A DNA stretch of 64,000 nt from Lingula anatina (Eukaryota > Animalia > Brachiopoda), in NCBI GenBank assembly GCA_051362555.1, contig CM120643.1, positions 27,160,848-27,224,847 of the forward strand. The letters run 5' to 3'. The notes beneath the pieces are model-generated. The model ran no database searches, was not told where the DNA came from, and worked only from the letters and a program-made list of their open reading frames with translations. The position numbers were made by a program, and so were the translations under genes. Positions within the stretch are counted from its first letter, which is position 1, and the number at the start of each line of letters is the position of its first letter. Positions 18,345 through 64,000 of this stretch are shown here, one piece after another.

Positions 18345-21300
18345 ATGAACATGATGTTTCCACTCACATGGATGGCTCTTATCGGCGTCTTAGCGTCGCT
18401 GGAGCTTATCAGAGGTGAACTCACGCTTATCTTCTTTAACTTCGAGCATTTCCTGGGACACGTTTGCAAATATTGTATCAAACATAATTACAGTTAGGGA
18501 TCTGATAAATAATTTTCTTGAATATGTACCTAACCATTTGTACAGGTGCACGGGGCAATTCTGCCATGGACCGCCTGATGGAGTATGTAGGTAACAGGAC
18601 CAACCCCCTGTCTATCCCGCTACCAGAAGATGTGGGTCCTTTGTCAGTTAACATAACAATGGTTATAAGCAACATTTTCCGCTTGGTGAGTAATATTACA
18701 TATATATATTCATATCCACCTCATCAGCAGCCACAAATTGATTAAATTTTGTTTTTAGGCTACAAAATAATATAGTAAAGACGATGGCTGAAGGAGGCTC
18801 AACATTTGTTTAAACGTAAAGCATCAATTTGACTTTATTTCCACATAATTTATTTGCGGCATTGTTCGACATCACAATTTTTATTTCGCTGTGCCTTGAT
18901 TGCACATTGTGTATGGAACATATACAAAATATAACTTTCTTTATTGAATATTATTGTTGCTAGTTTGTTCGTACAATAAGTATCTACCTGTAACATGAAT
19001 AATCTTAAACCCAAGTGACCGCGAAAGCTGACCTTTGTGATCATATGGACGATGTATTTTAATGATGTGCATGTAACACAAGGAATATACATGGGTCGTC
19101 TGAGCAAGGGGACGTGGGTTCTACCAGTCTTTCATAAACGGTACCACTTGTCTCCCCGCTTGGCAATCAGCACTTGCATTGGGGATTGAAGCAGGGTCTT
19201 TGGTCTGACAGAGAAAGATACTGTTAGTTTTCAAAAGTTTTCAGCGTCTCATTCGACAGCTGGGGTGTATCTACGCTATGGGCGTTAGAACGCTTTCACC
19301 CGAAGGGATAAAAATATTTATGTCCAGGTATTTTTTTCACTTATTGTAAAGTGCTCTGAAACTAAGTGTAGTGCGCTATATAATAACAATATTTTACTTA
19401 ATTATCTCATTATGCAGGACGAAGTTTATCAGACGCTGACTTCCGGCCTCTGGTTTGTTCTGGTGAGTGAGTATTATTATTATTATTTTTTTTTACATTA
19501 GTTATACTATATTTGCATTCAGATATGATGCCACTTTGTAAGCTAAGGGATTGGTGGCTGTATCCCAGTCAACCATGTGGTCTTTGTCTTAGTCCTAGTT
19601 TTTTTTAAATCTCAAATACATGTATGTGTTTAGGACTACAAATGGCTGACTGGGGTTTCAACTATTCTAAATCGTTCTGTAATTGTAAGTTTGAATTTTA
19701 ATATGACAATTAAAAATATAACAGCAGTGTTCTCATAATAATGATGTTCTTATATTATTATTATTATTATTATTATTATCATCGTTGAAGGTGTTGGCGG
19801 CATGGATGGTGATGGCGTATTAAAGTTATTATTTGTTCCTAATTTTGTGTGAATAACCAGACAGTCTTAAACATACAAATTTAGACGGGTGATCTTAATC
19901 ACCAGCAAGTTAATCAGCGAGTTAGCTATTCATTGGCTAATGATGGATTTCCTTCACACATTTTACTGTTTGATAACTTGACGTCACCACAAGTCAAAAC
20001 CGATTTTCAAATCACACACACAAGCATAAAAGTTAATAGGTCCTACTAGAAAAACTCACTTCTGTATTTTCTCCAACAGCACTGGACAGACTATAGACTC
20101 ACGTGGAACCCAGCGGAATATGGTAACATCTCCTTGATATCCGTTCCTTTGCAGAAGGTGTGGAAACCGGACGTAGAAATGTTCATCACGTAGGGCCCTT
20201 TGCTTCACTCATTTATTTTCTATTTATTATGCAGAATTGAACAGAGAAGCCTAATATACGTTTAGTAAAAACAGTTTGTTATTAACACTGTCCTTGTTCC
20301 TAACGCATGTAAAGTAGCACTAAAAAAGTAAGAAATATACATCAGGACCTTGTAGCATACCCTTTAACCGAGCACTACAGTCGAGACCCCAGCTGATTCT
20401 AAGTGTCATTCGTATTAATAGTTTAATATAAATATTAAAGTGTATTCCCCGTAGGCATACTCGGGTTTTGTAATGCAACAACTTGATATTTTGTTTCATT
20501 TTCAGCGCAGACGACAATCCTATGTTGTACAGTGCCACATACGGGGACGTGACAATGTGTCAGTTGAGATCCAACGGAACCGTCGAATGGTTGCCTCATC
20601 GCCGCGTGTCTAGTACATGCGCAGTTGATGTTTATTTCTATCCGTTTGATTCTCAGTCATGTGGGCTTCACATCTATTCCCCTACACTACCAGCTATATT
20701 TCTAAATTGGACAGTAGCATCACCTATTGACGCGACCCGTGGATCAAACCTATCGTCCAGAGAATGGGAAGTTATCAGCTTGGATCACTCTACGTATAAT
20801 AGCAAAGATGCTGCGGTATCAATAATCATTGAACTTAAGATAAATATTCGTCGCAACTTTTCCTTCTTTTCTCTTGCTATCTTGCTACCTTCGGCTCTCC
20901 TTGCAGTCCTTACTCTGGCCATGTTTTGGATCCCGCCTAACTCCACGGATAAAATGTCTATGGGTATGTAAACATTTTGTGTTGGGCCTATATAGTTATG
21001 CTAATCATAAAATGTCCTTGGGTACGTGCTTCTTTCCAGTAATATCAACATTTAACTTAAATGGTCGTAAAATGAGAAGGCAGAAAATTGATGAGATCAG
21101 AGAAATTACGAAGACAAACGATTTTTTTTCTATAGAAAATATTAAAAAATAAACGACTCACAATATTAAGTTTGGTTCTAGGAATGGCCATATGGACCTG
21201 TCTCTGTGTGATCCTCCTGGTTTTGGTTGGTATTGTTCCTGGGGGCGGCGGAAGAATCCCCTTAGTTGGTGAGCATATATTTTTAAACGATCATCACATG

Positions 21301-22313
21301 TCGTTAATATCCGACGCCGTACGTTTGACAGCCGTAGAGAAATAAGGCTTTTGGGTCAGGGACGGATCCAGAGATAATTTGTGACAGTCTTCCAAACTGA
21401 CGTTGTTGATCCATCCTCCATTTTTTAACGTCTTCCGACAGAAAAAAAAAATTAAAAATTAGATACCCATCAATGTAAACTTGGCAAATCTGAACGTCTT
21501 TCGGAAGACCCAGAAGACGGCCTCAATCCGCCCCTGTGACTAATAGCGGAATGGGCTGCTCATTCTTTACTGAGATGCGTGTAATGCCAGTTGTATCTTG
21601 GGCTCCCCAGGTTCTTTCTTCATCTTGAATCTGGTTCTTGTGACTGCAACGATGATCGTCATGATTGGCACGACAACAATGGCAGAGAACTGCACCCCCG
21701 TGCCACGGTGGCTCAGCAAGGTGAGGCAACCCTAAATGTAATTTATAAGATTCGTTTTCCACAATTGCTTTCCATATCAAATTACTCGTTGAGGGTGAAT
21801 TGCTAGTGGCAAACTGTGTAATTTTGAAAATTTTCTCCGATAGCGTTTTTTTTTTTTTTAACATGGATATTGCTTCGATTAAGAGAATAAAATAACTATC
21901 AAGATGTTTCTGTGATGATCCCCGATGTTCGGTATTCCTGGGGAGTTACATGTACATGTGGCAATGCATCCTACAGCGTGCATGGTAAGGACACTGTTTT
22001 TTTAATTGGCAACTATTTACAGGTGATGATGACGCACGTGTTTGGCACGTATGGTACAAACCAAGCACAAAATGAACGTATTGAGCCCCAAGAAAACTCT
22101 GCGAGGAAAGCTTCAGTGGTTGAATCTATTGAGAGGAATGTCAACAGCGATATTGAGAAAATACCATGTCACAGCTGTGGAAAAGAAAGAAAGGGATACC
22201 AGAAAGAATGGCAGTGTATTGCGAAATCATTTGATCGCCTTGTTTTTTGGTTGTTTTGTATAGGAATCACAATTTCAAGCGTGTGGATTTTAATTGATTT
22301 CTTCAATGGTTGA
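18345..22313 (+). CDS. Divergent nAChR-like Cys-loop channel subunit, copy A (about 436 aa, 8 exons)
   Basis: Exons 18345-18414, 18546-18685, 19418-19462, 20080-20189, 20506-20963, 21182-21268, 21611-21720, 22023-22313; all GT-AG and in frame. Signal peptide, WTDYRLTWNP, WKPD, Cys-loop CAVDVYFYPFDSQSC, M1 LLPSALL, M2 TDKMSMGMAIWTCLCV, MA-M4 EWQCIAKSFDRLVFW. No loop C vicinal cysteines. Confidence 0.9.
19090..19395 (+). mobile_element. Degenerate SINE-like element (Meta-domain-like core, L2-type tail) in intron 2 of copy A
   Basis: Core GGTACCACTTGTCTCCCCGCTTGGCAATCAGCAC resembles Meta-domain SINE cores. The end TGTAAAGTGCTCTGA...GCGCTATATAA resembles L2-derived tails. Recognised by eye only. 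Confidence 0.45.
21357..21536. mobile_element. Small degenerate MITE in intron 6 of copy A
   Basis: Imperfect terminal inverted repeats CAGGGACGGATCCAG ... TCAATCCGCCCCTG; no clear TSD. Confidence 0.4.
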
Positions 22314-22544: not shown

Positions 22545-23106
22545 TGTAAGAATCGGATAACCGATTTCTTGTTTATTTTGATTAATGTAAACTTAAGCGG
22601 CCCATTTGCGTGATCTTTTACGTGAGGAGGCAGGATTGCGAAGAAAATTGATGGACACTTCAACAGCGTGGCTGTTTTGTAGTTAGCATTCCGTAGGAAT
22701 AGACTTTTTTTTGCGACACTCCTTTGTGCTTTTATGATAGTTCAGACACCACATAGTATAATAACGTCAAGTTACTTAGATGTTCAGTGATTTTGTAGAG
22801 GAAATTCAGCTTTCCAGGATAAAAAGGAATAATTGACATCCACGAAAGCCAGCAATGTGAGTTTTTTATGATTGCTCTGTTGTACTGTATAAGTTAGTTT
22901 AACATTCTTAATGCAGTTTAAAATTGTTTGTAACACTCTGTTTTATTTAAGAATACTTATTTATGTTTGTTTTTTTTTTTGTTTTCGTTTTAGTCAGAAC
23001 CATTGGACTACAAGTACATGCGTTTCTGATGCTGGTTATTGAAATAAACATACAGAATATTAATCAAGACTTTATTGTTTTCACTTAAGATCCGTGGGAT
23101 CTTACA
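22545..23106 (+). repeat. 5' LTR (562 bp)
   Basis: Near-identical to 28863-29430; I see one substitution and two poly-T length differences. Confidence 0.95.
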
Positions 23107-23128
23107 GTTCTGAATTGGCTTTCCAACC

Positions 23129-26100
23129 ATGTCACTTCAAGAGGAAATAGAAAGACAGCGTCATTTAATTGAAGAATTAGAGAGAGACATTGATCAATCT
23201 ATTCACTCTCTTTTAAGAGACATAAAGGGAGAACATTCACTTCTTACCAGTACACCGCACAATGTAGCTACTAGTACATCAATCAGTGAAGCTTCTATAA
23301 GCCCCATACCTCATCCAGGGACACCATACACATGTAGATCAGAGGGTATTTCCACAATGAATGCAGTGTCTGTGACATCTCCTGTCACAATGCCATCACT
23401 TAGTGCATTAAGTTCGAACATTCCAGCTTTCAGCCAGACGACATTCACATCTCACAATGTACCAGTTGTACCACAGTCTCAGTCTGCAATATCAACATCT
23501 AATATACCAGTGTCTGTTGCGGTACCACTCACACCTTTTCCTAAACCTGTTTGGACAATGCAGGCTGCCCCTCTCACTGCTTCGCATGCAACACAGTCCA
23601 TGACACCACAGGATGACCGTTTACTGGGAAGTATTCCTGTATCATGTGAATTACCTGCGACTTCTCAGCTTACAGTGCCATCTCCAGCTGTATTTAGTAC
23701 AAGCTCACCCGACTTTATTCACATATCACAACCAAATCTTTATCATCCCCATGGTGCAGTAGCATTCTCCGCATCTCAGACTCCGATTCCAACGAGATTT
23801 GAAACAACAGCGTCTGTCGCAGTGCCACCCGCACCCACGCCTGCATACGGTATTCCATCTCAGACTATACAACACAGTGCAGTATATACACCAGTATCTG
23901 AGGCTGTGCCACCAACAAGTGACTCATTGACCCCACTGATAGATGCAATGCAGTTGCCAAAGGTAGAATTGATGCCTTTTAATGGAAACCCTCTGCAGTA
24001 CCACCCATTTATGAGATCATTTGAAAACATGGTAGGACATAAAAATGTTCCTCATGCTGCAAAATTGGCCAGGCTCTTGCAATATTGTCGCGGCGAAGCT
24101 TATAATCTTATACAGTGTTGCTGTGTTATGGAACCAGAACAGGGATATGCCACGGCTTTAAAGTTATTGAAAGAAAGGTACGGAGACAGTTACACTATTT
24201 CCCAGGCCTGGATACAGAAAATCATGAATAGGGGACCGGTGACGGATAATGTAGCTTTACGTCACTTTGCTGATGAGTTGAGATGCTGTTTTGAAACCTT
24301 GCGTGCAGTTGGGAGAAAGGAAGACATAAATAGTGGGGACTACCTACTTAAGATTGTACAAAAGCTGCCCCAATATATTAAACCCAGATGGTTGAAGTTG
24401 GTACACAGTATCCGGTCTGAAGGAAGAAATCCTGACATAGGGGACTTGGTTAACTTTATCTCTTTAGCAGCAGACGAAAGGAATGACCCTGTTTTTGGCC
24501 AACTTCTGTCTACTAGCAGAGAAGGAAGGAACAGACAGATCACTGCCAATTACAGCACAAGTACCGACAGTCCACTGTGTGCCTGCTGTGGTTCACATCA
24601 CAGTTTATTTAACTGTGAAGAATTCAAAGGTTTGAGAGTACAAGATAGACTAACTTTAGCAAAACAGAAGAATTTATGTTTCAATTGTTTGAGAACAGGA
24701 CATGTGGCCTTAAGATGTCCAGTGAACCGAGTATGCTCAGTAGAAGGGTGTGAACAGAAGCATACGAAATTTCTACATCTACCCCAGAGAAATGCAAACC
24801 AGAATATAGATGAAACAAATACTGAAGAAGTTGCTTGTAATGCCACAGGGGCCGGGGTGGGCAAGCAAAAGATTGCACTTCCCATCATTAGTGTGAAGGT
24901 CCGTGGGCAAGGTCAAACCCAATTTGTTGAAACATACGCTCTTTTAGATAGTGGCTCAACTCAAAGTTTCTGTTCAGAAGAGTTAACGAGGTCATTGAAC
25001 TTGGAATCTACAAGAAAAATTCACAACATTGTTTTAAACACACTTGGTCACCAAAAGAGAGTATTCAGTAAATCTGTAAACTTGGAGGTGACAAATGCAG
25101 ATGAAACTTTGATATATGACATGACAGATATATTGACTAGGCCCAAGCTAAATATAGGCACTGATAATATTGTTACTCAGGAAGAGTTGGACAACTGGCA
25201 ACATTTGAAGGACATAAAGTTACCAGAAGTAGACATTGACCAAGTGCACATTCTTATCGTACAAGACATGCCAGAATTACTCAAACCAAGAGAGATCCGA
25301 GAAGGAAAGACAGGTATGCCATATGCAGTGAGAACAGCACTGGGATGGACAATCAACGGTCCAATTGGAGAAAGGTCAAGAGAAAATGTTGGAAGTTATT
25401 TTGTGAACACTTCCAATGAACTCCAGGACCAGATCAAGAACTTGTGGAAGCTAGATGGACATGATGAAGATTTTTTAGCTATGTCTGTCAATGACAAGAA
25501 GGTTATGACTATCTGGGAAAATTCATTACACTATGATGAAGAAGAAAAACATTACAGCATGGACATTCCATTCCAAGAGCAGCCACTAAATCTCCCAGAT
25601 AACTGGCCTGTGGCAAATTTCCGTTTACAGTGCCTCAAAAGAAGGTTACAGAAAGACAAGTGGCTCCAAGAAAAGTATGTTGAAAGTATGGTAGAACTAC
25701 GAGACAAAGGTTATGCAGAAGAGGTGAAAGAGGTCAGTAGAGATGATGGTTATGTTTGGTATCTGCCCCACCATCCAGTATTACACGCCAGAAAACCAGA
25801 TAAAGTACGTATTGTTTACGACTGTGCAGCCAAGCACAAAGGCATTTCCCTGAATGATGCAATATATCAAGGCCCAGACTTAACAAACAAACTGATTGGA
25901 GTTTTACTGCGTTTTAGGCATCACCCCGTTGCTTTCATGGCTGATATTGAAGGAATGTTTTTACAAGTTAAGGTGAATGAGAATCATCGTGACGTGCTTC
26001 GATTCTTGTGGTGGAAGGATGATGATATGAACAAACCAGTTCAAGTTTATAGAATGACAAGGCATTTGTTTGGAGGGGTATGGAGTCCAAGTTGTGCATC

Positions 26101-28731
26101 ATTTGCCCTACGGCGTACTGCGCTGGACAATTCCTTGAATTTCACCTCTCAGGCTATAGAAACTGTATTGCGGAATTTTTATGTTGATGACTGTCTCAAA
26201 TCAGTACCTGATACGCAGCATGCGATTCAGTTAGTTAAAGAATTGCGAGAATTATTGGCACTTGGAGGGTTCAAGCTTACGAAGTGGATAAGCAATTCAC
26301 GGGAACTCCAACACTCTATTCCAGAAGCAGAGTGGGCCAAAGGAATCCCAACCTTAGATCTTGAACAAGATGAATTACCTGTGGAGAGAGCATTAGGTGT
26401 TTTGTGGGATGTGGAATCTGACAAACTTGGGTTCAATACACTAGTCAAACAGAAACCCATTACCCGCCGAGGACTGTTAAGTGTTGTAAGCTCTGTGTAT
26501 GATCCCTTGGGATTTGTCAGCCCCTTTATTCAGAAAGCGAAAATGATGTTCCAGATGCTGTGCAAGTTGAAGATCGGCTGGGATGATCCATTACCAGAAG
26601 ACATAGCTCATCAGTGGAACAAGTGGCAAAATGACTTACCTTTGATCAATGAGATGAAAATTCAGCGATGTTTAGTACCACCAGCATTTGGTACCCCGAT
26701 TGATATTCAACTTCATCACTTCGCAGATGCATCTGAAAATGGGTATGGTGTCGTTACTTACCTACGTTTGACAAACGGAGAAGGCCACGTACACTGTGCA
26801 TTTGTCATGAGTAGAGCTAGATTAGCCCCTTGCTCAGCGACCACAATACCCAGATTGGAGTTGTCTGCAGCTGTTATGGCAGTAGATTTAGATGAATTGC
26901 TACGGAAGGAATTGGACTTTTCCTTTTCTCCTTCTGTCTTCTGGTCTGATAGCATGATAGTACTGCAATATATTGCAAATGAGGACAAGCGATTTAAGAC
27001 TTTCGTGGCAAACAGGATTGCTAAGATAAGAGAAGTGACCTCACCAACTCAGTGGAGGCATATAAGTAGCAAATTAAACCCAGCTGATGACGTATCACGT
27101 GGTGCGACGCCCCAAGAGTTGGTCAGTAAGGAACAGTGGATTTGTGGTCCCTGTTTTTTGCAGTTTCCTGAGGCGGAATGGCCTAGTTCACCTTACGTAG
27201 CAGAAGTAGAAGCTCATGATACTGAAGTAAAACAAGATGTTAGTGTCTACCATGCTGAGATTATGAAAACGGACATACTTGACAAGCTGATGGCAAGATA
27301 TTCCACTTGGAATGAGCTAAAGAAAGCAGTAGCGTGGATATTAAGAGCAAAGTCTGTACTTAGGAGTAAAGTCTTAAAAAGGGTACAGCAAACGTGTGAT
27401 TTGCTCTCTGTTGAAGAACTTAATGTGGCTGAAGAAGAGATTGTTAAGTATGTTCAAAGAAACATGACAAGGGAACAGTTTCAGAGCAAAGGTTTCAAAA
27501 GACTATCGCCAGAAACCTTACCCAGCGGCATTTGGGTGGTTGGCGGTCGTTTGAAATATTCCAGCCTTGTGGAGACAGCAAAACACCAGTGGATTTTGCC
27601 ACAAAAGCATCCAGTTGTTTCTTTGATAGTGAGACATTATCATAATGAAGCAGGGCATACAGGAGTGGAACATGTCCTTTCAGACATCAGACAGCGTTAT
27701 TGGATTATGAATGGCCGTGCTGCCGTTAAACGAGAGATCTATAGGTGTATGTTGTGCAGAAAGTTAAAGGCCCCGACACTTGAACAACGAATGGCTGATT
27801 TGCCGAAGAATCGCACAGAAGCATTTCTACCACCCTTTACTATAGTGGGTGTTGACTTTTTTGGACCATTCTTTGTAAAACGTGCACGTAGTGAAGAAAA
27901 GAGGTACGGTTGTCTGTTCACGTGCCTAACATGCAGAGCAATACACATTGAGATATCTCATTCACTAAGCACCGATTCGTTCCTGAATGCTATGCAGAGA
28001 TTCATTTGCCGACGAGGAGAACCTGAGGAAGTTCGCTCTGATAATGGAACCAATTTCACAGGAGCACATCGTGAACTGAGGGAACATATTAGTAGGTGGA
28101 ATCAAAACAAGATAACGGACTGTTTGCGTCAAAGGGAAATTAAGTGGGTGTTTAATCCTCCCTGCGCATCACATATGGGAGGGATATGGGAACGGCAAAT
28201 TAGAACAGTGCGATCAGTTCTCAGCTCATTGTTGACTCAACAACCGCTCAAGTTGGATGATGAGGCTCTTTGTACTCTTATGTGCATAGTGGAGAATATT
28301 GTGAATTCAAGGCCTATCACAAAGCTTTCTGATGATCCCAAAGACCTGCTGCCACTGACGCCTAATCATCTTTTACTGTTGCGTTCAGGACCAGTGTTAC
28401 CTCCTGGGGATTCGTGAAACAAGATATGTACCATAGGCGGTGGAAACAGGTTCAGTATATTGCTGACTTATTTTGGCAGCGTTGGCTAAAAGAATATCTG
28501 CCTTTGTTACAAGAGCGGCAAAAGTGGTTCAGTGTTAAGCGAAATCTCAAAGTTGGGGATTTGGTATTAGTGAAAGATGAAAGTACTCCGCGTCTGCAAT
28601 GGCCAATGGGCTTGGTGACAAATACAAGTCCAAGTATGGACGGCTGTGTTCGCTCAGTCCAAGTTAGAACACAACATGGAATCTTCAAGAGACCAGTGAC
28701 AAAACTTTGTCTTCTGGAAGGTGTAGACTGA
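23129..28731 (+). CDS. Bel/Pao Gag-Pol polyprotein, with a frameshift near 28410
   Basis: Gag (FNGNPLQY...F), three Cys/His knuckles (CACC..H...[21 protein letters not shown]), protease LLDSGS, RT FYVDD, RNase H FADAS, integrase HHCC plus VDFFGP/SDNGTNF/WER. The C-terminal domain ([17 protein letters not shown]) continues in another frame at 28414-28731. Confidence 0.95.
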
Positions 28732-28862
28732 TGTGACGGAGGTTAAAGTGGTAAAGTCATAGACCTTTTAATTACAACCTAGACATAATATAGTAATCTG
28801 GGACTGTAGTTAAATTTATAATATAATTTATGCAATGTGGGTACATGTGCATAAGGGGCCGG

Positions 28863-29430
28863 TGTAAGAATCGGATAACCGATTTCTTGTTTATTTTGAT
28901 TAATGTAAACTTAAGCGGCCCATTTGCGTGATCTTTTACGTGAGGAGGCAGGATTGCGAAGAAAATTGATGGACACTTCAACAGCGTGGCTGTTTTGTAG
29001 TTAGCATTCCGTAGGAATAGACTTTTTTTTTGCGACACTCCTTTGTGCTTTTATGATAGTTCAGACACCACATAGTATAATAACGTCAAGTTACTTAGAT
29101 GTTCAGTGATTTTGTAGAGGAAATTCAGCTTTCCAGGATAAAAAGGAATAATTGACATCCACGAAAGCCAGCAATGTGAGTTTTTTATGATTGCTCTGTT
29201 GTACTGTATTAGTTAGTTTAACATTCTTAATGCAGTTTAAAATTGTTTGTAACACTCTGTTTTATTTAAGAATACTTATTTATGTTTGTTTTTTTTTTTT
29301 TTTTGTTTTCGTTTTAGTCAGAACCATTGGACTACAAGTACATGCGTTTCTGATGCTGGTTATTGAAATAAACATACAGAATATTAATCAAGACTTTATT
29401 GTTTTCACTTAAGATCCGTGGGATCTTACA
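28863..29430 (+). repeat. 3' LTR (568 bp)
   Basis: Direct repeat of 22545-23106, followed by the TSD GTGTA. Confidence 0.95.
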
Positions 29431-30432
29431 GTGTATACATAAACATTGTAGACGTATCTCTTTCTTTCATTCTTCCTCTCTCCCTCTATCTTCCTTTTTC
29501 ATGTATACAATTTCCTGGGAATATCTCTTTGGTTGTCGTTTCTATCACCACGCCTTTCAATATCAAAGACAATTATAAGACGGACGTTTTGGAAATTCAT
29601 CGATGGGTTTCATGGCTGCTTCCTATTTTTATCAGCAAAGTCGAACAACTTTCCATAACAATATACACTGAAGAACAAACATATCTCCAGCAAACTGGTT
29701 CTGTTTATCTTTTGAGATAATTTAGGGTAAATAAGTTGAAGTCGCCTTCAATTTCAAGTAGTTAGATAAAAGTAATTTGAATCAACAGTGCACTTTTTGA
29801 AAGTCGTTAATTCCAGTCACACACACTGGATTTTGTCATAATGCACACCATTATAACTTTATCATTATAAATAGTAGTCATTAACTAATAGTTGACTCTC
29901 CCTCAGATTCTCCCACAGTCTTTTTTTCTTACTGGAAAATGCGCATCAAAAGTAAGTACATTTACCCTATTTTCAGAACAACAGAGACGTTTAAGAGTAT
30001 CTACGAGGAATTGCTTTTATCACAGTTGTGCTTACACATTTCATGTTTCATGTTGATCGACACTCGATGAGTAACTTCTTCAAATATATATATATTTAGA
30101 ATACTCGCGCCGTATAATGTATTTATTGGAAGCAACAAAGTGCATTACTTCCGCAGGCTACTTCCTCATAATTGCAAGAGAACAATATTCCATTAGCTAG
30201 TTATTTTCAACGCACCAAGTCCAGTAACTGATTGTTTTAATGTTTGTTTAGGCTGAAAGGGAGTTGCAATTCCTAGCGGGGTAAAACAAATCAATGTTTG
30301 GCATCTACAATGAGCTCGTGTCGTACAACTTCTATTTATATTACCACAGTACAGGGGTTCCTACGCATCGTTGAAAAATACCAATCGGTCTTTCCTTCTG
30401 TCCTTTGATGAAACGATGTTATAACAAGCACA

Positions 30433-33400
30433 ATGAAGGAATGGATACGGATCTTTTTAGTGATTTATCTAATCACAGGTGAAATAATATTTACTTTAAG
30501 CAGTTTACTATTTTATTTTATTAATAATTTAGTGTGTTGAGAAAGTTTGAGATAGTGTACTAGTTGGTTAAACCTTTAAATGTTTTGAGAAATGGCACGT
30601 GTAATGCATGTAATTGCCATGGTGTTGCACCATCATCAGTCACGAATTTCTTTGTAAAATGAATATATCTGTACATGGTATTTCTGGCAGCTACACGAGG
30701 GAATTCTGACATGGACCGTCTGCTTGAATATGTCAGCAACAAGACGAACTCCCTGTCTATCCCGCTACCTGAGGATGGAGGACCTCTGCCTTTCAGAATC
30801 CTACTGAGGCTAAGCGCCGTATACAACCTGGTATGTGGTCAATTATGTCATCATATTCACTTAAGGAATTAAAGTCTAAGAAATTGACTCGCAGCTCTTC
30901 CTACATTCAGTGGTATTTAATGTCGGGCTGTCTTCAATTTTCTCACTGTTCTAGCTTACTACACACCACAGCCAAGAAACACTTATATTAGATACACTTA
31001 TACATATATACAGTGTGTAGCCATGGGAAAATGCCATGGCGCAAGAGGAAAACGGACAAGCCCTGTCCGTTGCGGTTGAAAGCGGAGAGCGACAGTTAAA
31101 ATTACCAGTACACTTTGACATATTCCTTGAGTGTTTGACAGACTTTTCAAAATGCTAGGAATATGACGTACATTTGAAACATTTAAAGTAACATTTCTTT
31201 TTAAAATAATTTTTCTTGCAATTCAGGACGAAGTTCACCAAACGCTGACTACAAGTTTATTGTTCATTATGGTGAGTTTTCCCTGTAACAATTAGGCCAG
31301 TATAACGTGAAGCGGTACTTACTTCATTATTTCAGCAAAATGATTTTAACACTATACCTCAATTTATTTTGAAGCATTTGTATTTTACGGTTTTAATTAC
31401 GTACAGTGTGTCTATTCATATAGCCTTCATATAGCCGTCGCATACGCCGCCGTCGACGTGCACTTTCCACTCTCAAAGCGATAAATTGGAAAAAGAATGA
31501 CTTTTTATCATCGAACTAACTGGCCTGCTAAAGGACTAAAATACATGTTAAGTTCGAATAGCAGCTTTACTGGGCAATTTACTTTAATTCTGCAGTAGGT
31601 GATATTGATGTTTAGCACCATGCACATCTAATTTTTTTCGGCGTCATCATAATTCTGAACTTAATGTCTGTACATTTGTTAAGCTTTGCTGCCTTGTTGC
31701 ATCCTCATCTAAGATACATACGAACATTGAACGTATAGCTTACTCTGAGGGAATATTATGTAACACTTTGTGAAAAACTTGAAAGGAGATCTATGCACAC
31801 ACATACACACTCACACTGTATTCACTGTCAAAAGATATGTGCGCAACATTCTTAGTTTAAGTACCTTCATGTTTTACAGCACTGGACAGACTATAGACTC
31901 AGGTGGAATCCAGCAGAGTTCGGCAATATTTCCTTGATAACCCTACCCTTACACATGGTCTGGAAGCCGGACATTCAGATTTCAAACAGGTGTGTATATG
32001 ATAAATTTTAACCATGAACAAGAAACTGGTTTAAAACTGCAGTGGGCCTTCTTTGTTAATATCTGAGGTAAAACGAAACCAAAAGAGGTGATATTTTTAT
32101 AGACATATATTAAAAAGAAGGGAAATGAAATGACATTTACTGGATATTAGATTTTAACAAGCATTTTTCCCACAACAGTAAGTAAGGCAGCAGGTAGATT
32201 TCATTTATTTTTGTTTTATGCTCCATAACTGTTTTGTTCGCAGTGCAGACGACAACCTCCTGCTATACAGCGCCACGCTAGGGGAGGCAGTCACGTGCAG
32301 ATTGTTCTCCAGTGGCGTCATTGAGTGGACTCCTCTTCGTCACGCGTCTACCACGTGTCCAGTAGATGTTTACTTTTATCCATTCGACACCCAGTCATGC
32401 AGACTTTACATAATGTCCCCGACGTTACCAAACACTTATATCAATTGGATAATTGAGTCGCCTATCGACGATACCCAAGGCACAAAGCTTTCGTTGACAG
32501 AATGGGAAACTGCGGCCCTGAATCACTCCACAATCCAAGTACACGATGATGAAGACAATATAGCAATAACTGTCTTGGTATATATAATACGAATTCAACG
32601 ACATCTTTCCTTCTTTTCGCTCACGATTTTTCTACCTTCAGCACTTCTTGCAGCCCTTACCCTGGCCATGTTCTGGGTTCCTCCCCAGTCCACCGATAGA
32701 ATGTCTATGGGTAAGTGCATATTTCATGTACACCTTACATACCGGTACCTTGACAAATTTGGCTTGCAAGTATGTTTTAGTCGAACGCATGCATTGCAGT
32801 ATATATGTTAAAAAAAAAAAGCAGATGGATCGGAAAAATCATGGAATTCTACTCTTCCCAGTTGAAATTTGCCTCTACATTTTTACAGTCAAAGGGGTTA
32901 GATCATGCTAAGTATTACAATCATAATCACAAATATATATAATCACACATCAAGTAATTTATTGAATTATCATATAACCTGTTATGAATTGATCCTAAGC
33001 CTGTTTATACATTTCTTAAGCAAAGAGAGCTGGACAATGGCACTACACTATAAAATAACATAGAATGGTTAATTGTGCCAAACCAAATCAAGTCCGTGAT
33101 TCCAAGTTAATACTTTGTTTCCAGGAATGGCCATATGGACCTGTCTCTGTGTGGTCTTACTGGTGTTAGTCGGTATCGTCCCCGGTGCTGGGGGCAGGAT
33201 CCCCCTACTGGGTGAGACATATACAACATAGCCTCCACTTAAGTAGTATACAAAATGCTCTAAGAGATTTAATTTCCAAAGTTGTCATAATTTACTATGT
33301 ACAAATCAAGTGACCTTGTAATCAGTAAATATAAACTCGCAATTTGTTTGCAAACATTTGATAATTATACATCTATTTATGTATTGTTTGTACATAGAGT

Positions 33401-34084
33401 AACAGAATCAGTGAATGCATAAATTGTCTATGTAATGTAATTGTTTTACGTGGCAATAACATAATGTTATGCAGGTTCTTTCTTCATCCTGAATCTGGTT
33501 CTTGTGACTGCTACGATGATCGTCATGATTGGTACGACAAGAATGGCGGAAAACTGCACCCCCGTGCCTCGGTGGCTCAGCAAGGTAAGGTGTAAGTGAT
33601 CAATGATTTTAAGAATGATTTGAATTTTTCTTCAGTCAACAGCTAATATTGAGATAGGTTTTACCTCCAATATTTCGATGTCTATCAGGACATCTTCTTG
33701 AGGGAATGAGGCTATCCAGGTGAATAGCCTCTACTCAGGAGGTGTACTTGCCCCCCCCCCCCCCCCATTGTCTTAGGAAAGGGAGGTAGAGGTCAGAGAG
33801 GATGGCACCATCATTTCTATTGAGACTGGTCCCTGTCTTTTTTATGTGGATGGCTTCCAGAACTTTTCTGTAATTTTCCCTTGGCTCACTGTCAATCACC
33901 TTGATTTTGTCGATTATAGGGCCATACGCTACTTTATGTCCAGATTGTTCCTCATGCTGGCTTAATGCTGACTTGCTGTTTCTATTATTGACTGACTTTT
34001 GGTGTTCGGCTATTCTCTCTGACACTGATCTTCCCGTTTCGCCTATATATTTCTCACCACACCCCTCACATTCCATTTCATAGA

Positions 34085-34119
<35 letters not shown>

Positions 34120-38395: not shown

Positions 38396-38478
38396 ACAGC
38401 TAGAACATGGAACACATGCATTTCTATGGAAGACGACAAACGTCTCTTTCATTGAGTTCCTTGGATTCACTTGCAGGG

Positions 38479-41400: not shown

Positions 41401-41771
41401 ATTCGTCGCAATTGGTCTATTTAATACAGACATACAATACGGTACATAAAGCCAAGCTATCTGATATATCAGTATTATTTTTGCATCAGGTTAGTAAGAA
41501 TATACTGGCGCCTTTGCTTTGTATGTGTGGCGGTCGTGCAACTGAGACGCGAAAAATCTATCTATCCACAATTTTAGTGGATGAATTCACCGTGAAGAAT
41601 CTCAGCACTGACAGCAAAGCAAGTTGTACCAACGGTGAAGAGGACAGACAAAAATACAGAGAAGAGTGGCAGTACATTGCGAGCATATTTGATCGGCTTT
41701 TCTTCTGGGTGTTTTTTATCGGGATAACCATTAGTTGTGTGTGGATTATAGTTGATTTTCTTGGGCGTTAA
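38479..41771 (+). CDS. Divergent nAChR-like Cys-loop channel subunit, copy C (about 428 aa, 8 exons)
   Basis: Exons 38479-38521 (in-frame upstream ATGs from 38407), 38694-38833, 39202-39246, 39613-39722, 39959-40428, 40896-40982, 41172-41281, 41490-41771. Cys-loop CAIDVYYYPFDSQSC; loop A WTPH; M2 TDKMSMGMAIWTCLCV. Confidence 0.9.
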
Positions 41772-45711: not shown

Positions 45712-48545
45712 ATAGATGTCATAGGAATGATCAAAATAGCCAATCTGAAAAGAAGTGACATTGATTTTTTTACACTTTTTATTTAGTATAATGACACGTT
45801 TTTAAATATTTGCGCCAAATGCGTATGCATGATCTTATAACAAATCCGACATATTGTTGCTTCATCTTACAAAGGTTTTCACTTTTCAATTAAAATTTTT
45901 GAATCTGTATGTGAATTGCTTAAATAAAATACGTGTTAGTACAAATTATATTGACAGCTATACAGGGACAGCTATACAGGGACATCCTGACATGGACCGT
46001 CTGTTTCAATATGTCGGCAACAAGACAAAGCACCTGTCCATTCCACTACCTGCCGATAGAGGGCCTCTGCCGGTTACCTTGAGCACGCTGTTCATCACCA
46101 TATTTGACGTGGTGAGTAACGTTGTGCTCTTGCCGTGGTATCCACTGTCAGGTTACGAGCCTGTCAATTATTTATTCGAAATATTCGTCACAATGCTGAC
46201 TTGGAATATTTTGACATTATTGAACACGCACGTAGCGGCTGTTGATCATGTCGAAAAGTTAAGCCTAGGTCCCAACGCACGGTTTTATAGGTTCCTTGCG
46301 TCCGGCTAGGACGTAGCTAGAACGCAGGGAAGGAATCGGGAAGGGTTCGTGCGTGAGGAGCACGTAGAAACTTTTCGACATGATCAACAACCGCTACGTG
46401 CGATCTAGCTACGTGCGTCCAAAACGTAGTTGGGACCTAGGCTTAACTCTTATATTTTGCAGCAATGGACAGATGACAGACTAACATGGAACCCAGTAGA
46501 CTTTGGCAACATTTCTCTGATACCTTTACCTGCACATATGATATGGACGCCGCATGTAGAAATCTTTAACACGTAAGTTTTCTCATTAATATTAACGAAA
46601 CCAAAGACTGAGAAAAAAGGGCAACTTATTGTGTACATGACATAGTTGACAAAGTTCGATATCTGGGATGCATTGGACTGAATACCTAGCCAAACACAAG
46701 CATTTGTTGCATTATTGATACACTAAGACAAAATGTTTAATGTTCTTTGCTTCATTTCAGCGCAGAAGATAACCCTATGCTGCACAGTGCCTCGCTTTCA
46801 TCAAACGACATCGAGTGCCAATTGAGACCCGATGGCGGCGTCTTATGGGCGCCTCTAGCCAATGCGCAATAGACGTTTACTACTATCCATTCGACTCCCA
46901 ATAGTGTCAGCTTCGTATACTTTCCCACACTCTACCAAACAGTTGTATCAATTGGACAGTAAACCCACCTACGGACGCTACTAAAGGCACTTGGAGGTCT
47001 TATTCTGGGTGGGAAATCACTAGTTTGAATCGTTCGGTACTGCAAGTGAAAGATGAAATATCTGGGACCAAGGTGTCTCTTATTGGACTTCATATAAACA
47101 TCCGTAGACTTTTTTCATTCTTTTCACTTGCAATTTTGGTACCTACAGCTCTCCTTACAGCCCTTACTCTGGGTATGTTCTGGGTTCCTCCTCAGTCGAC
47201 TGATAAAATGTCAATGGGTATGTGCAGCAGTTCATATATTTAATCATTATCGAATGTTCAAAGGTTTCAGTGTTTTTTTTCTCTTTCACGCTTAACGATA
47301 AACCAGCATAAATATCGAGGTAAAACATCTCGGGAAACTGAGCAATATTGCTCTGCAGATATTATTCGTTTATACCCAAAGTCAATGTCTTCCTTTAGAT
47401 GTATTAGAATTTTTAGAAATTAAATCTGCTGAAATTAATCACCATCAACGACCATTGTAAGTGTCCCAAAGAACTTTGAACAATTAAATGGGTTAAACTG
47501 TTTGAAATATCTGAAAATCAGTCAAGGAATGACTTTCACATACACTCTATGTACAATAATTTACTTCAAGTGAAACTGCTTCCAGCTAACTGCCACTTGG
47601 CATTTTGGTATTAAACCCCACCCTTCGGCATTATCAGTATGTTTAACAAGTAATTCCAAATAACTAATTTGGTTCTAGGAATGGCCATATGAACGTGTCT
47701 CTGTGTGAGTCTACTGGTTTTGGTCGGAATTATACCTGGCGGCAGCGGAATAATGCCCTTAGTAGGTGAGCAAGCGCAGTTGCACCATGCACTATGAATT
47801 TCATGCAAACATAATGGAATGTTTTATATATACTAGAATCCTCAAAAGTTCGTAATTTTTCTGTTGTTTTTCTTCTGCAAATAAATATTTCCGTCGTTTT
47901 TAGCGTCAATGACGATATATGACGATATTAACTTTCGCTTTTTAGGCACTTTCTTCATCCTAAGTTTGGCTTTCGTCACCATTTCGATGATCATCACAAT
48001 TGGCACGACAAGAATGGCTGAGAACTGCACCCCCGTGCCAGGGTGGCTCAGCAAGGTGAGTTGACATGTACTAGTTTATTGATGTGTTAACAATTACACC
48101 TTAATGACAAACTTTCCCTTTGTCAGTGAACAGATTCTTGTCATTTTAGATCTCACAATATTATTGATTTAAGTTACAATCTCTTCTGTTGAACTGTTCA
48201 TATAAAATACAGGGTATATAATACCAATTTTTTATGTATTAGGTTGGAAACAATATACTGGCGCCTTTGCTTTGTATGTGTGGCGGTCGTACTTTCAAGA
48301 CAAGAACATCTTATCCATCTACAATTTTAGTGGTAGAATCTGCTGAGAAGAATCTCAACACTGACAGTAACGAAGCTATCTGCGCCACCGCTGAAGAGGA
48401 CAGACGGAAATACAAAGAAGAGTGGCAGTATATTGCCAGCTTATTTGATCGGCTTTTCTTCTGGATATTTTTCATAGGGATAGCCATTTCTTGTGTGTGG
48501 ATAATAGTTGATTTTATTAAAGGTTTGGACATTTCAAACGCTTAA
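45712..48545 (+). pseudogene. nAChR-like pseudogene, copy D (closest to copy C)
   Basis: Start ATG changed to ATA (45712) and exon 1 donor degraded. Exon 2 at 45972-46111 has a 14-bp duplication at its acceptor. The 45-nt exon 3 is missing. Exon 4 46463-46572. Exon 5 46761-47217 has a deletion before the Cys-loop and TCG>TAG in the Cys-loop. Exon 6 47679-47765 has TGG>TGA at 47690. Exons 7 and 8 at 47946-48055 and 48243-48545. Confidence 0.9.
46257..46448. mobile_element. MITE, possibly PIF/Harbinger-like, flanked by TTAA/TAA
   Basis: Perfect 20-nt inverted ends AGTTAAGCCTAGGTCCCAAC / GTTGGGACCTAGGCTTAACT. Confidence 0.7.
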
Positions 48546-50398: not shown

Positions 50399-51540
50399 AT
50401 GAGGACAATTCTGTATTTCTCTATCACACTGTTCATCACAGGTAAATATGTTCATCTTGTGGTTATTCTTACGCGGGACAGGCACAACATTATTACCCAG
50501 TGCGCAAGTGTTTTATCCATTTATCTCCTTAGTAGCTTGTTTATGAGTGTATTTCGCTTCTGTGTTCATTCATTTCCCCGTTCATTTCTCTGTGTTCATT
50601 TTCTTTTCCTTTTTATACATTTGTAGTTACTTTTCATTCTTGTCTATACTTCTTTCCTCAATCGTCATCCCCCTCTCTCTATTTATATTTATCTATCTAT
50701 TGTAATTGGCACATTTAAGATAAACATAAAGCACATACCCAATGGTCAATTTTCAGGTGTCCACTGCAATGAGGACTTGGATAGACTGACTGAGCACGTG
50801 ACAGCTCGGTCCAAACCTCTCGTGATGCCGGTGTCCAGGGATACTGGACGCGTTACGGTCACTGCCCAGATGTACTTAAGCCAGATTTTTAATTTAGTAG
50901 GTTTATTGCATTTCCCACCTTCGTTGGTTTACTTGTTTGTGGACAGGGTATCTCAAAACGTTCTGCACAGATTTTAAACTAATTTGTATGGCACATGACC
51001 CTCCAAGGATAGATTACGGGGTATTTTTAAGAGTAAGCGGCAGACACTATTTTCTTAAGTAATGATATAAGCTGTTACGATTTTTCAATTCTAATAATGA
51101 CTTCTAAAAACAGTTCAGTAACGGGGGCTTTACGTTTTGTGTAAGACACTCGTATAAATGCCATAAAAGTTCTGCTTTAAGCCGAGGGAACGCTTTGGGG
51201 TTTGAAACAGTGTACTGTGAAATTAATAACGTGTTTTAAGATTGTCATTAATTTTTTTCGGATACGTGCTTTCGAAGAGTAAAGTTTCAGCTGCCTTTAC
51301 GTTGACCACGGCTCAAGACTGACAGGCAGATCTACCGGGGTAGATCAGTTGTCCCTATCACAAAATCATGTCAAACAAAAAGTCTTTATAGTAACCAATG
51401 TGCTCTCTGTGATCGTACTATGTTTCAATTCAGGACGAGGTGCACCAGCTGTTGTCATTTTCAGCTATCTTCCTAGTGGTAAGTAAATGTGGGCTCACAG
51501 AGAAAAATGCTTGCATCTTATGAGACTAATGAAATTGTTT

Positions 51541-51624
<84 letters not shown>

Positions 51625-52226
51625 TTTTTTTTTTGCAATTACTTTAATTTTTAAATTGTGAAAAATTTTTCCTAGACACTTATTCCAATTTAATTTGACT
51701 CTTAATCTAACTTGATTAACGATAGTGCATGTTCTTGGCAATAAGACAACAACCCAGCAGGCGTAGTGACGATGGATCAACGTTGAAAACGGGTTGTGAC
51801 GTTGAATTGCCGTTGATCTACCTAAATTCAACGTAAAATCAGCGTTGATCCAGCCACGTCAAATCACCGTCATAATGTGACGTTGACTCAACGTTGTTGT
51901 TTAGTCGTCGTCATGCAAGACATGGATTGAAATTTAAAATATTAAATATTGAAAATGTGATACTTTGTTTATCAATAATGTAACTAACTTCATCAAAATA
52001 TTAAAAACGGTGTTTTAAAGTAAAAGTGACAGTTGTTTTGTGTCTTAAGTGAACTAGTGAATTTTCTTAACTTGTTATTCAGAAATACATTCCAATAAAC
52101 TTCCTCGCAAGGTCAGCTAACACTAGGATGAATAAGTCGCTGTAAATTTGATGAAATGAAGTTAACAAAGGTGACAGTTCTCGGTACACTGTTATAGATA
52201 GAAAGGTGGAAGTGACTGTGACTTTG

Positions 52227-52268
<42 letters not shown>

Positions 52269-55200
52269 CTAAACCTTGGAAACCCTTACTTAAAGGCTAT
52301 ACATACATGTATATACCCTACATATATTTAGCCATTAAACATGTCCTACTGCTAAACACATCCAGGCTAAAAGGGTGTACCATGCTTAGGTGCAAAACAT
52401 GCTAAGGAGCTGAATGCGTTGAAAAAAATCAGACAAAGCAGGCACTTGGATGTTTTTACAGTGTACGTTATAATTGTGTACCTGTGGTTTGAACCAAAAG
52501 TAAAAACATTTCAGGTAATTTTAATGTCTTTTCATGCAAGAATGTTGTCTAACAACTGGGGTTGATACAATGTTGTTATCTGACGTTGATACAACGTTGT
52601 TATTTGACGTTGATACAACTTTCAAATCCGTCTTATCAACGTTATGGTTCAACGTTGTTTCAACGTTAAAACAACATAATTTGCCCGCTGGGAAGAGGAC
52701 CATCACCAAGGTCAAAATGCATGTGTTTTTATTGAAATAAGAAACAAATGTGCTTTTCCATTCAAACCTGACTCTAGAAATGGAACGACCGACGCTTGGC
52801 ATGGAACGCCTCAGAATATGGAAATATTTCCAGCATTGCTCTGCCTCTGTCGTCATTGTGGATTCCTGACTTGGAGATATCGAACAGGTAAAGGTATTTT
52901 GTAATTTTGTATTTACTAGTACGTGTACATGAAATCAGTTTATATTTGTTTAATTTTATCATTAACATATTTTTTTGTTCATTAATGTACGTATTTATCA
53001 GTAATACATAATACTTGCAAAGAAATGTGTGTTCTCATTTTATGCCAAGTACGCTGCAAGTAGCTGAGTTCTGAGTTGTGTATTTATCATCTTCCCACCA
53101 GCAGCGACCCATGGCAACACCGAGGCCTATCATTTCATCACCACTGCACTGAGTTCTAAACTTCATTCAGAACGCCAATATCATGCTTTGCTGAAATACC
53201 TCATGTATACCTCATATTAACCATGTGCTCTTATCTTAAAAGGCGGTATATAATGAAAATAATTGGAATTCTTAAACATTAAGAATTACAGCTGAAATAA
53301 GTATGTATTAAAAAGAAAAACATCATATTTTTTTTTTACTTTATCGTTTCCAGTGCAGACGAGAATACATTGCTTTACAGGAGCTCTGGTCCGGCTAATT
53401 CCGTAAAATGTCGGATATTTTCGGACGGTAACGTGCAGTGGACGCCGCATCGCAGGCTATTGACTGTGTGTACCGTAAATGTTTTAACTTATCCATATGA
53501 TTACCAAGACTGTAACGTTGAGATTCACTCGACCACTATGACTGACGATGTCCTTGATCTACACTATAAGCCGGCTAATAACAATAACACTGTTGATGAG
53601 GACCTCTCGGATGATGATCATTACGATTTAACTCTATCCTCAACATGGACACTGGTGGCCAGTAATGTCACGAAAGTCCATCACCATACCGACCATGACA
53701 GGATTACCTATCTGATATATTCCATTCGTATTCAGCGCCGGTTCTCGTTTTTCTCTCTGGTAATGCTGTTGCCGTGTGTGCTCCTGGCGGCGCTTACTCT
53801 GACTATATTCTGGTTATCACCGCAGACGACAGACAAGATGTCCATGGGTAGGTTTTCCTTTCTTAGCTTTACCAGGAAGCACACATTTGGAAACCTCGGG
53901 TCATTATGCATATGAATCTTGGTAACTTGCTTCTGAGATGCTTTGCTGTCTTAGCATTTAAAATAAAAATATCACTAAAATGTCACTAAATGTCAAATGG
54001 CAATTCACTTTTTCATACTTATTCATCAAATTTTGTTTGCAAATAACAGTAGCCAATATAGTACCTGCAATTTTGAAAATTTATATTACATGTATTAATT
54101 GCAAATAGTGACATTTACATTTCAGACATTAAAAAGAGTGTTATTGTATTTTCTGTTCATTTTAGGAATGGCAATATGGACGTGTTTTTGCGTGATTCTT
54201 CTTATTCTCGTTGAGGTTATTCCTGGAAATGGAAACGAACATCCAATGATAGGTAGGTATGGATTTACCCCGGTACTTGCACCTTACACAAGAAAACGCT
54301 TTATATTTTGGTTACATTTCATTACGTTTTTAAATTCAGTTTTATTAATTAATTAATTTATTTATTTATTATCACAAAGGAGTGGTTGCCCCCACAACAC
54401 AAACCCCACTCACTGACTACACCCAATGTTAACATAGTCATGCTACCTGTAATTGTAATCACATGAATAAGTGATAGATAAAAATGTTCACACGTTGTTG
54501 TTAATCACTCAGACTGAGTTGAAACGATATTTAAATTTTCTTACACCTTTTCCTTTTCCAGGATTTTTCTTTGTCATCAACCTGGTTCTGGTAACCGTCA
54601 CAATGATCGTCACAGTGATCACAAACAGGATACGAGAGGCTGATACCCCCGTTTCTCCATGGCTTAAAATGGTAAGACGTATTTTATTTCACCATAGTTT
54701 GTTTCATTTATAAATTACTTCATTATAGTTACAGGTCGTGTCGTTTTAACGGTATTAAAACACATTTTTTCATAATCCATATTTGTTTTAATTCAGATTT
54801 CTTCAAAGTTTTTAAAAACTTCATTCCATCCCGTCTGCATGTTTTTGACGTTTCGTCTAGGGTGTTAATGATTCAATTTTTACCCATTTGAGGTGGCTTT
54901 TTTAATGGAATCTAGTTGAAGACCCTGACGACTAATCAGCAATTTGATCCACTTCATTGGAAAGACATAAATAAATCAAATACCATTTGGTACACATATT
55001 ATCAAGAAAGATGCTTGTTTGGTTGTAATATATATATGCATTTCTTTTCTTTTTAAATCATTTAATTTACTTATATATTTTTTGTATCGGAATGGTCTTG
55101 TATAATACGCCTCCTATCTTTCTGCATAAAAGGATCTCATGAATTGGTCATGTATGCATCTTTACAGATAGCCTTTAGTGTGCTTTCGCCACTGCTGTGT

Positions 55201-60174: not shown

Positions 60175-60219
<45 letters not shown>

Positions 60220-63959: not shown

Positions 63960-64000
63960 GTAGGTTTTCCCTTCTTAACTGTACCAGGTGGCACACATTT

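Follow-up and report, generated by a model that had tools for sequence, protein, structure and literature searches.

What holds the pore of a nicotinic-type receptor subunit shut when the residue at the centre of its gate is threonine? In textbooks, the hydrophobic gate of Cys-loop receptors is Leu9' of the second transmembrane helix, M2, and L9'T or L9'S is the standard gain-of-function mutation. The question is raised by a 64,000-nucleotide stretch of the genome of the brachiopod Lingula anatina (the window; 37% G+C, zero N), in which a tblastn map with one copy's exons as the query places six tandem paralogs of a nicotinic-type Cys-loop subunit, A to F, on the + strand. Their exons span about 18.3-22.3, 30.7-35.8, 38.7-41.8, 46.0-48.5, 50.8-55.5 and 62.0-64.0 kb; five copies are apparently intact, and D is a pseudogene. 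A first-pass annotation of the window had noted a natural Thr at 9', beside a Trp at 8', in several of the copies and had suggested that they may form slowly desensitising, easily opened or leaky cation channels.

The pore helix of the six copies

Five M2 exons lie in the window, each of 87 nucleotides with an AG acceptor and a GT donor:

21182 (first base) to 21268, + strand: M2 exon of copy A (5' to 32'), with Ala6' GCC at 21187-21189, Trp8' TGG at 21193-21195 and Thr9' ACC at 21196-21198
33125 to 33211, + strand: M2 exon of copy B, with Trp8' at 33136-33138 and Thr9' ACC at 33139-33141
40896 to 40982, + strand: M2 exon of copy C, with Trp8' at 40907-40909 and Thr9' ACG at 40910-40912
47679 to 47765, + strand: M2 exon of copy D, with TGA replacing Trp8' at 47690-47692 and Thr9' ACG kept at 47693-47695
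54166 to 54252 (last base), + strand: M2 exon of copy E, with Ala6' GCA at 54171-54173, Trp8' at 54177-54179 and Thr9' ACG at 54180-54182

The interval given in the first-pass annotation, 21182 to 54252, thus opens exactly on the M2 exon of copy A and closes on the final base of that of copy E. A phase-1 intron splits M2 within the Gly4' codon. The upstream exon ends in GAT or GAC, then AAA, AAG or AGA, then ATG TCN ATG and a final G before the donor GT; the M2 exon opens, behind its AG, with GA ATG GCN ATA TGG ACN TGT, and the spliced helix reads DKMSMG-MAIWTC (DR in B). This junction is common to two independent sets of gene models, NCBI P0001, P0002 and P0003 and MetaClust P0005 and P0007. 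A motif search of the window finds IWTC at 21190 (A), 33133 (B), 40904 (C) and 54174 (E), and TDKMS at 20945 (A), 40410 (C), 47199 (D), 53829 (E) and 63941 (F).

Thr occupies 9' in all six copies (codon ACC in A and B, ACG in C, D and E, and read from P0003 in F), as Ala does 6' and Asp does -1', while Trp is at 8' in five of six, the sixth being D with its TGA. The four assignments had been made for A, B, C and E from an alignment to alpha7, and HMMER and MAFFT alignment confirms them; the retention of the Thr codon in D beyond the stop and the location of F's M2 exon outside the window are likewise borne out. The placing of Lys at 0' stands for five copies and fails for B, where the residue is Arg. 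Copy A's spliced M2 is TDKMSMGMAIWTCLCVILLVLVGIVP. The variants are Arg0' and Val14' in B, Ser14' in C, and Phe11', Ile17' and Glu20' in E and F, and the pore face is made up of Asp -1', Ser2', Ala6', Thr9', Val13', Leu16', Val or Ile17', and Gly or Glu20'. The entrance to M2 is of the cation type, Thr-Asp-Lys or Thr-Asp-Arg in all six with no Pro at -2', unlike that of relatives with Pro-Ala-Lys. Pro-Ala-Lys at -2' to 0' is an anion-type entrance, and the acidic -1' that had been taken as a mark of cation selectivity does, with the missing Pro, separate the copies from relatives of that kind among the matches.

Could M2 be shifted against alpha7, bringing a Leu such as Leu11' to the gate? We find this hardly credible. 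The M1-M3 segment of copy A aligns without gaps in all five listed HMMER alignments (beta4, two chains; alpha6; beta2; alpha3), and that of copy E does so in its five (beta2, alpha6, alpha3 and two beta4 chains), with flanking loops of identical length. In MAFFT the Lingula rows are ungapped against P0050, an alpha7-like fish protein that contains the alpha7 string used in the first-pass annotation, and 179 of the 181 M2 segments cut from the nearest relatives can be placed gapless against copy A M1-M3. Anchors stand on both sides of the helix (Pro -6', acidic -1', basic 0', Gly4', Pro23' and the PL(V/I)G motif), Pro -6', Gly4' and Pro23' matching alpha7, and sliding by two residues would turn the helix through 200 degrees. 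For copy A, AlphaFold2 with 95 sequences as input gave a model (mean predicted local distance difference test, pLDDT, 86.2; predicted template-modelling score 0.79) with helices at 252-271, 279-302 and 312-339, the second of which runs unbroken from -2' to 21' with a block pLDDT of 88-95. A shallow run with seven rows gave a pLDDT of 45 and was discarded, and nothing speaks for a shift. The formal alignment and structural model that the first-pass annotation had named as checks therefore both return the original register. As judged by them, Thr is at 9', Trp at 8', Ala at 6' and Asp at -1', and a register shift is not plausible. From this register and helix geometry we infer the orientation of the 8' and 9' side chains.

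The copies belong to the Cys-loop, or pentameric ligand-gated ion channel, superfamily, with its profiles, its signature residues and four helices, M1-M4. All five exon-b translations match PF02931 (Neur_chan_LBD; E 4e-15 to 2e-10); P0001, the NCBI model of copy A, matches it at 1e-30 and PF02932 (Neur_chan_memb) at 7e-07, and P0002 matches PF02932 at 5e-16. A Cys loop of the form C-x13-C with YPFD or YPYD is present in each of the five intact copies. Across a 95-row alignment R248 (the pre-M1 Arg) and P260 (the M1 Pro) are invariant and C170, P178, D180, C184 and P304 near-invariant, all of them in copy A; the Cys-loop pair, PxD, pre-M1 Arg, M1 Pro and M2-M3 Pro are among the most conserved residues of the superfamily (PMC4795631). 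The M4 of copy E aligns with that of solved nicotinic acetylcholine receptors (nAChRs).

The nearest solved chains to copy A are those of vertebrate neuronal nAChRs, namely beta4, alpha6, beta2, alpha3, alpha4 and alpha7 (E 6e-38 to 1e-34; entries 6pv7, 5kxi, 8zrn and 7koo), with the same M1-M2-M3 lengths and fold elements. Like them, the Lingula copies have the Cys loop, pre-M1 Arg, M1 Pro, M2-M3 Pro, an acidic -1' and a basic 0'. Unlike them, they have Thr rather than Leu at 9', Trp rather than Leu at 8' and Ala rather than Ser or Thr at 6', they lack TrpB and the loop-C Cys pair and tyrosines, and identity is 27-36%. The Leu at 9' that goes with an nAChR is thus absent from all six.

Relatives and the age of the pore signature

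How singular is this pore? An exhaustive HMMER search with P0001 retrieved 8042 proteins at E up to 0.001, the best of which, after P0001 itself, are merely 23-38% identical. The best 150 of the 8042 were surveyed, and M2 was readable as 181 segments in 147 proteins. The 9' residue in these segments is Leu in 115, Val in 29, Ile in 13, Thr in 12, Phe in 5, Ala in 4, Met in 2 and Gln in 1, and the commonest 8'-9' pair among the nearest relatives is Leu-Leu; in a published set of 561 pentameric channels, 9' is Leu in 75% and Phe in 13% (Jaiteh et al., PMC4795631). Trp at 8' accompanies Thr9' in seven segments and Ala9' in one, and never Leu. The full pattern Gly/Ala4'-x-Ala6'-(Ile/Val)7'-Trp8'-Thr9'-Ser10' occurs in seven of the 150 (P0021, P0022, P0026, P0032, P0035, P0052 and P0110), which are also the top-scoring single-domain matches to P0001. 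P0052 is CAH1796650.1 and its cluster mate P0158 is CAH1796649.1, both from the annelid Owenia fusiformis; the other six representatives lie on contigs of 1.5-3.7 kb, with frames of 438-457 residues in P0021, P0022, P0032 and P0035. The first-pass annotation had suggested looking for the motif in related genomes, and here Ala6'-Trp8'-Thr9' proves not peculiar to Lingula: as read from these alignments, it is common to brachiopod and annelid, which is new here.

We built trees without M2 columns -2' to 23' and inferred no root. In FastTree (173 rows) Lingula A, B and E group with the seven Trp-Thr representatives and four Ala9' rows at support 97. A quick IQ-TREE run (52 rows, two long-branch rows dropped) recovers a branch that sets these 14 rows apart, at a support of 66, and has the Lingula trio at 99. 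The best tree thus favours a single origin of Ala6'-Trp8'-Thr9' both times, though it does not firmly show one. In nine of nine Trp-Thr rows (Lingula A, B and E, Owenia and five others) Ala6', Trp8', Thr9', Leu15' and Pro23' are invariant, and identity between Lingula and the other clade rows is 29% outside M2 and 48% within it. The Owenia protein CAH1796649.1 and the six clusters with GVAIWTS carry the triad as Lingula does, are its nearest single-domain relatives and fall with it on one side of a branch in both trees. Within the clade, all Lingula copies have Cys at 10' and 12' (WTCLC or WTCFC), and the relatives have Ser10' and Val12'.

Other pairings occur outside this clade. Relatives with Pro-Ala-Lys or Pro-Ser-Lys at -2' to 0' (P0025, P0027, P0030, P0040, P0044, P0047, P0051, P0056 and others) are mostly Phe8'-Val9'; within this group P0027 has Leu9' and P0044 Thr9', and one member, from Octopus bimaculoides, bears the name alpha-10 in its source. 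P0064 from Bulinus truncatus has three Phe8'-Thr9' repeats, and P0046, of alpha type with a loop-C Cys-Cys, has Leu8'-Thr9'.

Does the threonine offset a lost acetylcholine (ACh) site, as the first-pass annotation had suggested it could? In copy A, set against alpha6, TrpB is replaced by Pro, the loop-C Cys-Cys by Ala-Ala, TyrC1 by Ser and TyrC2 by Ile; the TrpB position is Pro in B too and Thr in E. By these residues, the principal-face ACh site is absent from the Lingula copies. Non-alpha subunits of true nAChRs also do without the principal-face residues, so the Lingula copies may act as non-binding partners. The Owenia protein retains both TrpB (APWSYD) and the loop-C pair (HFDCCPEAY), with E 3e-65 against alpha3, and TrpB is retained also in P0021, P0022, P0035 and P0045. 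Because the signature occurs both with and without an ACh-type site, the best tree suggests that it likely predates the loss of the site in Lingula. An older pore would not have arisen to offset that loss, which speaks against the suggestion; at most, the old pore may have made the loss easier to live with.

In the literature searched we found no description of a natural Thr9' or of an Ala6'-Trp8'-Thr9' clade, which is weak evidence of absence, as prime signs are unsearchable and subscription journals lay outside the scope. Jiao et al. 2019 (PMC6896357) make no mention of TM2, pore, leucine or selectivity, and four M2 motifs are absent from six readable supplements (file 5, a picture, was outside the search). 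Nicotinic-type subunits with a conserved polar gate residue are, on this survey, more interesting for the age and fixed partners of that residue and less singular, as 9' varies widely in invertebrates.

Gating with threonine at 9'

How would such a pore open and close? The L247T mutation at 9' of alpha7 raises agonist potency, reduces desensitisation, increases spontaneous openings and makes agonists of modulators (PMC4548482), which agrees with the properties that the first-pass annotation had attributed to it. Similarly, I233T at 9' of GLIC is a gain of function, giving conductance at neutral pH (PMC8635979), and in the muscle receptor each further subunit with Ser at 9' adds a step of constitutive opening, because the hydrophobic girdle wets more easily (PMC10757554). 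Taking the direction of the effect from these 9' substitutions in alpha7, the muscle receptor and GLIC, we propose, at a probability of roughly 0.45, that Thr9' subunits would give channels with easier opening and slower desensitisation than those with Leu9'. A complete or partial ring of Thr9' would weaken the hydrophobic gate at mid-pore and lower the closed-state barrier, and closure would then rest on Val13', Leu16' and Val/Ile17'. The subunits might form homomers or serve as non-binding partners in heteromers, where the effect would grow with each Thr9' subunit included. At 100 degrees per residue, 8' falls on the side of 12', 15' and 19'. Because it lies about 100-120 degrees off the pore face, Trp8' is likelier to be an interhelix packing residue than a pore plug, and we propose that it packs between helices on the same side as the invariant Leu15'. 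The likeness to alpha7 L247T is one of residue, position and a cation-type M2. L247T is a laboratory mutant in a Leu8'/Thr6' background whose effects have been measured, whereas the Lingula Thr is natural, old and joined to Trp8' and Ala6'.

Several observations weigh against this proposal. First, Trp8' and Ala6' invariably accompany Thr9' in the clade and 13', 16' and 17' are hydrophobic throughout, so the gate may have been rebuilt rather than loosened. This is the serious rival and the main one: Ala6', Trp8' and Thr9' would be co-adapted and the pore would close as tightly as one with Leu9', Trp8' pushing M2 inward or partly covering the 9' level, the barrier lying at Val13', Leu16' and Val/Ile17', and the native channel having no gain of function. 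The exclusive pairing of Trp8' with Thr or Ala across the 181 segments and the invariance of the triad in all nine clade rows speak for this, and the exchange of the usual polar 6' (Thr in alpha7-like subunits, Ser in beta2) for Ala looks as if polarity had been shifted one turn up. A precedent is Alpo4 from the lophotrochozoan Alvinella pompejana (8bx5), an nAChR-like orphan that does not respond to ACh and whose pore is unusual; it is among the solved matches and has its tightest constriction at Met16' (PMC10338036). The Trp8' cases, however, all fall in one probable clade and so would amount to one evolutionary event, not to replicated covariation; 8' would, by helix geometry, face away from the pore axis; and a polar 9' is a gain of function in all three receptors cited above. 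We regard a rebuilt gate as rather unlikely, and less probable than a loosened one.

Second, position 9' tolerates change in working receptors, because 59 of the 147 readable relatives have at least one non-Leu 9' (88 have Leu only) and the representatives named alpha5 (from two fishes) and beta3 (from goose), namely P0042, P0067 and P0048, carry Val. The first-pass annotation had treated a non-Leu 9' as exceptional, and this was overstated. The vertebrate subunits resemble the Lingula copies in a natural non-Leu 9' and differ in that Val is still hydrophobic and 8' is Leu; alpha5 and beta3 do not form the principal ACh site. The 9' Val of beta3 has been replaced by Ser (V273S) in published work to boost function. 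Third, Alpo4 closes at Met16'; this is where its oddity lies, and its 9' residue is Leu, since its authors had to introduce L9'T by mutation (PMC10338036). The support of 66 in the second tree, the death of one copy, and the thin expression, partial gene models and E/F divergence described next also count against channels with a loosened gate.

Is the cluster instead decaying, its copies non-functional or being lost and Thr9' merely tolerated? Copy D carries three disabling lesions, the ACh-site residues are gone, and E and F, with a synonymous divergence (dS) of about 0.08 and a ratio of nonsynonymous to synonymous divergence (dN/dS, by Nei-Gojobori counts) of 0.43-0.66, reach 0.66 in the ligand-binding exon, which shows relaxed or diversifying change there. 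Four Lingula anatina RNA runs (about 41 million records), in which copies A and B were covered, yielded six reads at position 20700 in exon b of copy A (four in X12, two in X16), list no spliced reads and have no reads on the exons of copy B, and the NCBI models of A, E and F are partial. Against decay, A, B and C differ among themselves by dS 1.2-1.75 with dN/dS of 0.18-0.27 in exon b and 0.06-0.18 in the M2 exon, and between A/B/C and E/F the synonymous sites of exon b are saturated. Copies A, B, C and E have open frames in every exon from exon 2 through M4 and AG/GT borders at the M2 exon, the conserved residues of the superfamily are present, and the pore signature is also kept in the annelid and in six other representative clusters. 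A decaying cluster is on this evidence very improbable. Because synonymous sites are saturated between the old paralogs while dN/dS stays at 0.06-0.27, the Ala6'-Trp8'-Thr9' signature is kept by purifying selection; the shared motif itself is descent, not chance, and it is its retention that exceeds chance.

We note that the first 27 nucleotides of the M2 exon (codons 5' to 13'; 21184-21210, 33127-33153 and 40898-40924) differ at 0-1 positions among A, B and C, and the next 57 at 13-21, with intron flanks not conserved; this synonymous conservation could be an exonic splicing signal or codon constraint. Gene conversion was considered as a source of the shared motif and rejected, as ungapped identity between the intron flanks is about 30-50% and non-recent pairs differ at 13-34 of the 57 remaining exon sites.

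A further and more speculative step, which we think doubtful, is that for hundreds of millions of years an old spiralian clade has used a deliberately loosened gate in which Trp8' braces a polar ring of Thr9', the Lingula family being broadly tuned, weak-agonist-sensitive (chemosensory) or tonically active cation channels without an ACh site. Cephalopod chemotactile receptors (CRT1 and relatives) are comparable by description: they are derived from nAChRs, lack the usual ligand motifs and are gated by other ligands, and the CRT1 preprint consulted does not state the 9' residue. If the step were right, the clade would be the natural counterpart of the L9'T trick used to de-orphanise silent receptors.

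A natural Thr9' fixed with Trp8' and Ala6' across brachiopod and annelid is a ready-made evolutionary experiment. A loosened gate would matter for tonic signalling, for chemosensation and for the ways in which orphan receptors come by new ligands, and a rebuilt one would mean that neighbours can restore a gate without Leu9', with consequences for gating theory and for 9' disease mutations. Revertants can be tested in members that bear the ACh site (Owenia) and in members without it (Lingula).

Copies, gene models and neighbouring elements

The copies are laid out as follows:

18345 to 22310, + strand: copy A, whole gene (tblastn, open frames, P0001 at 99-100%), with signal peptide exon 18345-18416, exon 2 18548-18685, exon 3 19418-19462, exon a about 20083-20181, exon b 20498-20963, M3 exon about 21607-21720 and M4 frame end 22310; inner exon bounds are approximate, the M2 junction excepted
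30696 to 35847, + strand: copy B, exon 2 to the stop after M4 (tblastn, frames; spliced within fused model P0005), with exon b 32236-32710 (Arg at 0'), M3 about 33468-33590 and M4 frame end 35847
38699 to 41768, + strand: copy C, exon 2 to the stop after M4 (tblastn, frames), with exon b 39951-40428
45977 to 48542, + strand: copy D, pseudogene, with exon b 46759-47217
50768 to 55542, + strand: copy E, exon 2 to the stop after M4, with exon b 53346-53847, Phe at 11' and Glu at 20'; models P0002 and P0007
62026 to 64000, + strand: copy F, 5' part only, with exon 2 62026-62145, exon 3 62663-62707, exon a 62935-63045 and exon b 63482-63959, ending DKMSMG

The M4 exon frames of A, B, C, D and E close in a stop. 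Copy D is called a pseudogene because of its TGA at Trp8' and, in exon b, the loss of 13 bp and a TAG within the Cys loop; its exon 3 was not found in the tblastn map of the window, and a signal-peptide exon for copy B was not located in the window. C and D (dS about 0.2) and E and F are recent tandem duplicates. Both duplications include intergenic sequence: 39940-41322 matches 46743-48096 at 78-82% DNA identity, and 49028-53888 matches 59736-64000 at 84-88%.

Public models cover the cluster in pieces. P0001 is XP_013391402.1, named by NCBI 'neuronal acetylcholine receptor subunit alpha-2-like [Lingula anatina]', and a word-index search finds it 99% identical to exon b of copy A; P0002 (XP_013391399.1) covers copy E in part; and P0003 (XP_013391386.1) represents copy F, beginning at 63875 and running on as MAIWTCFCVILLILVEVIP. 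Of two older models, both from MetaClust, P0005 fuses A, B, C and D, and P0007 fuses D and E. P0006, on an 8.9-kb scaffold, is another E/F-like copy or an allele with an identical M2 start. The last ten residues (352-361) of the NCBI model of copy A map inside a long terminal repeat (LTR), twice, at 22997-23026 and 29321-29350; the normal M4 exon frame of the copy ends at 22310, unlike this LTR-derived end. Residues 86-94 of P0001 are an insertion relative to all five solved chains aligned, residues 84-91 have pLDDT under 50, and the segment is probably unspliced intron sequence preceding exon a. Word-index searches with exon b of copy A and with P0001 returned Lingula models and one Mercenaria protein, nothing else; the word-index protein search with exon b of copy E returned zero matches, and an ESM Atlas search gave matches at family level only.

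The LTR belongs to a young-looking BEL/Pao LTR retrotransposon that separates copy A from copy B at 22545-29432. Its two direct repeats of 570 bp, at 22545-23108 and 28863-29432, share 98.8% identity, and between them the + strand has a single frame of 1767 codons without a stop (23114-28417) with Pao retrotransposon peptidase, DUF1759 and integrase zinc-binding domains. The M3-M4 intron of copy B holds an inverted repeat of about 510 bp, 98.2% identical, at 33610-34118 and 34322-34828. RNA reads pile up at 21503-21536 and 34820-34855 with loose ends on both sides, and this sequence is likely a dispersed repeat transcribed elsewhere. Finally, upstream of the cluster, at about 2985-12445 on the + strand, lies a further channel gene with ankyrin repeats (7242-7496, 7668-7900 and, weakly, 2985-3344) and a weak Ion_trans match at 12329-12445, below the Pfam cut-off; it looks TRP-like.

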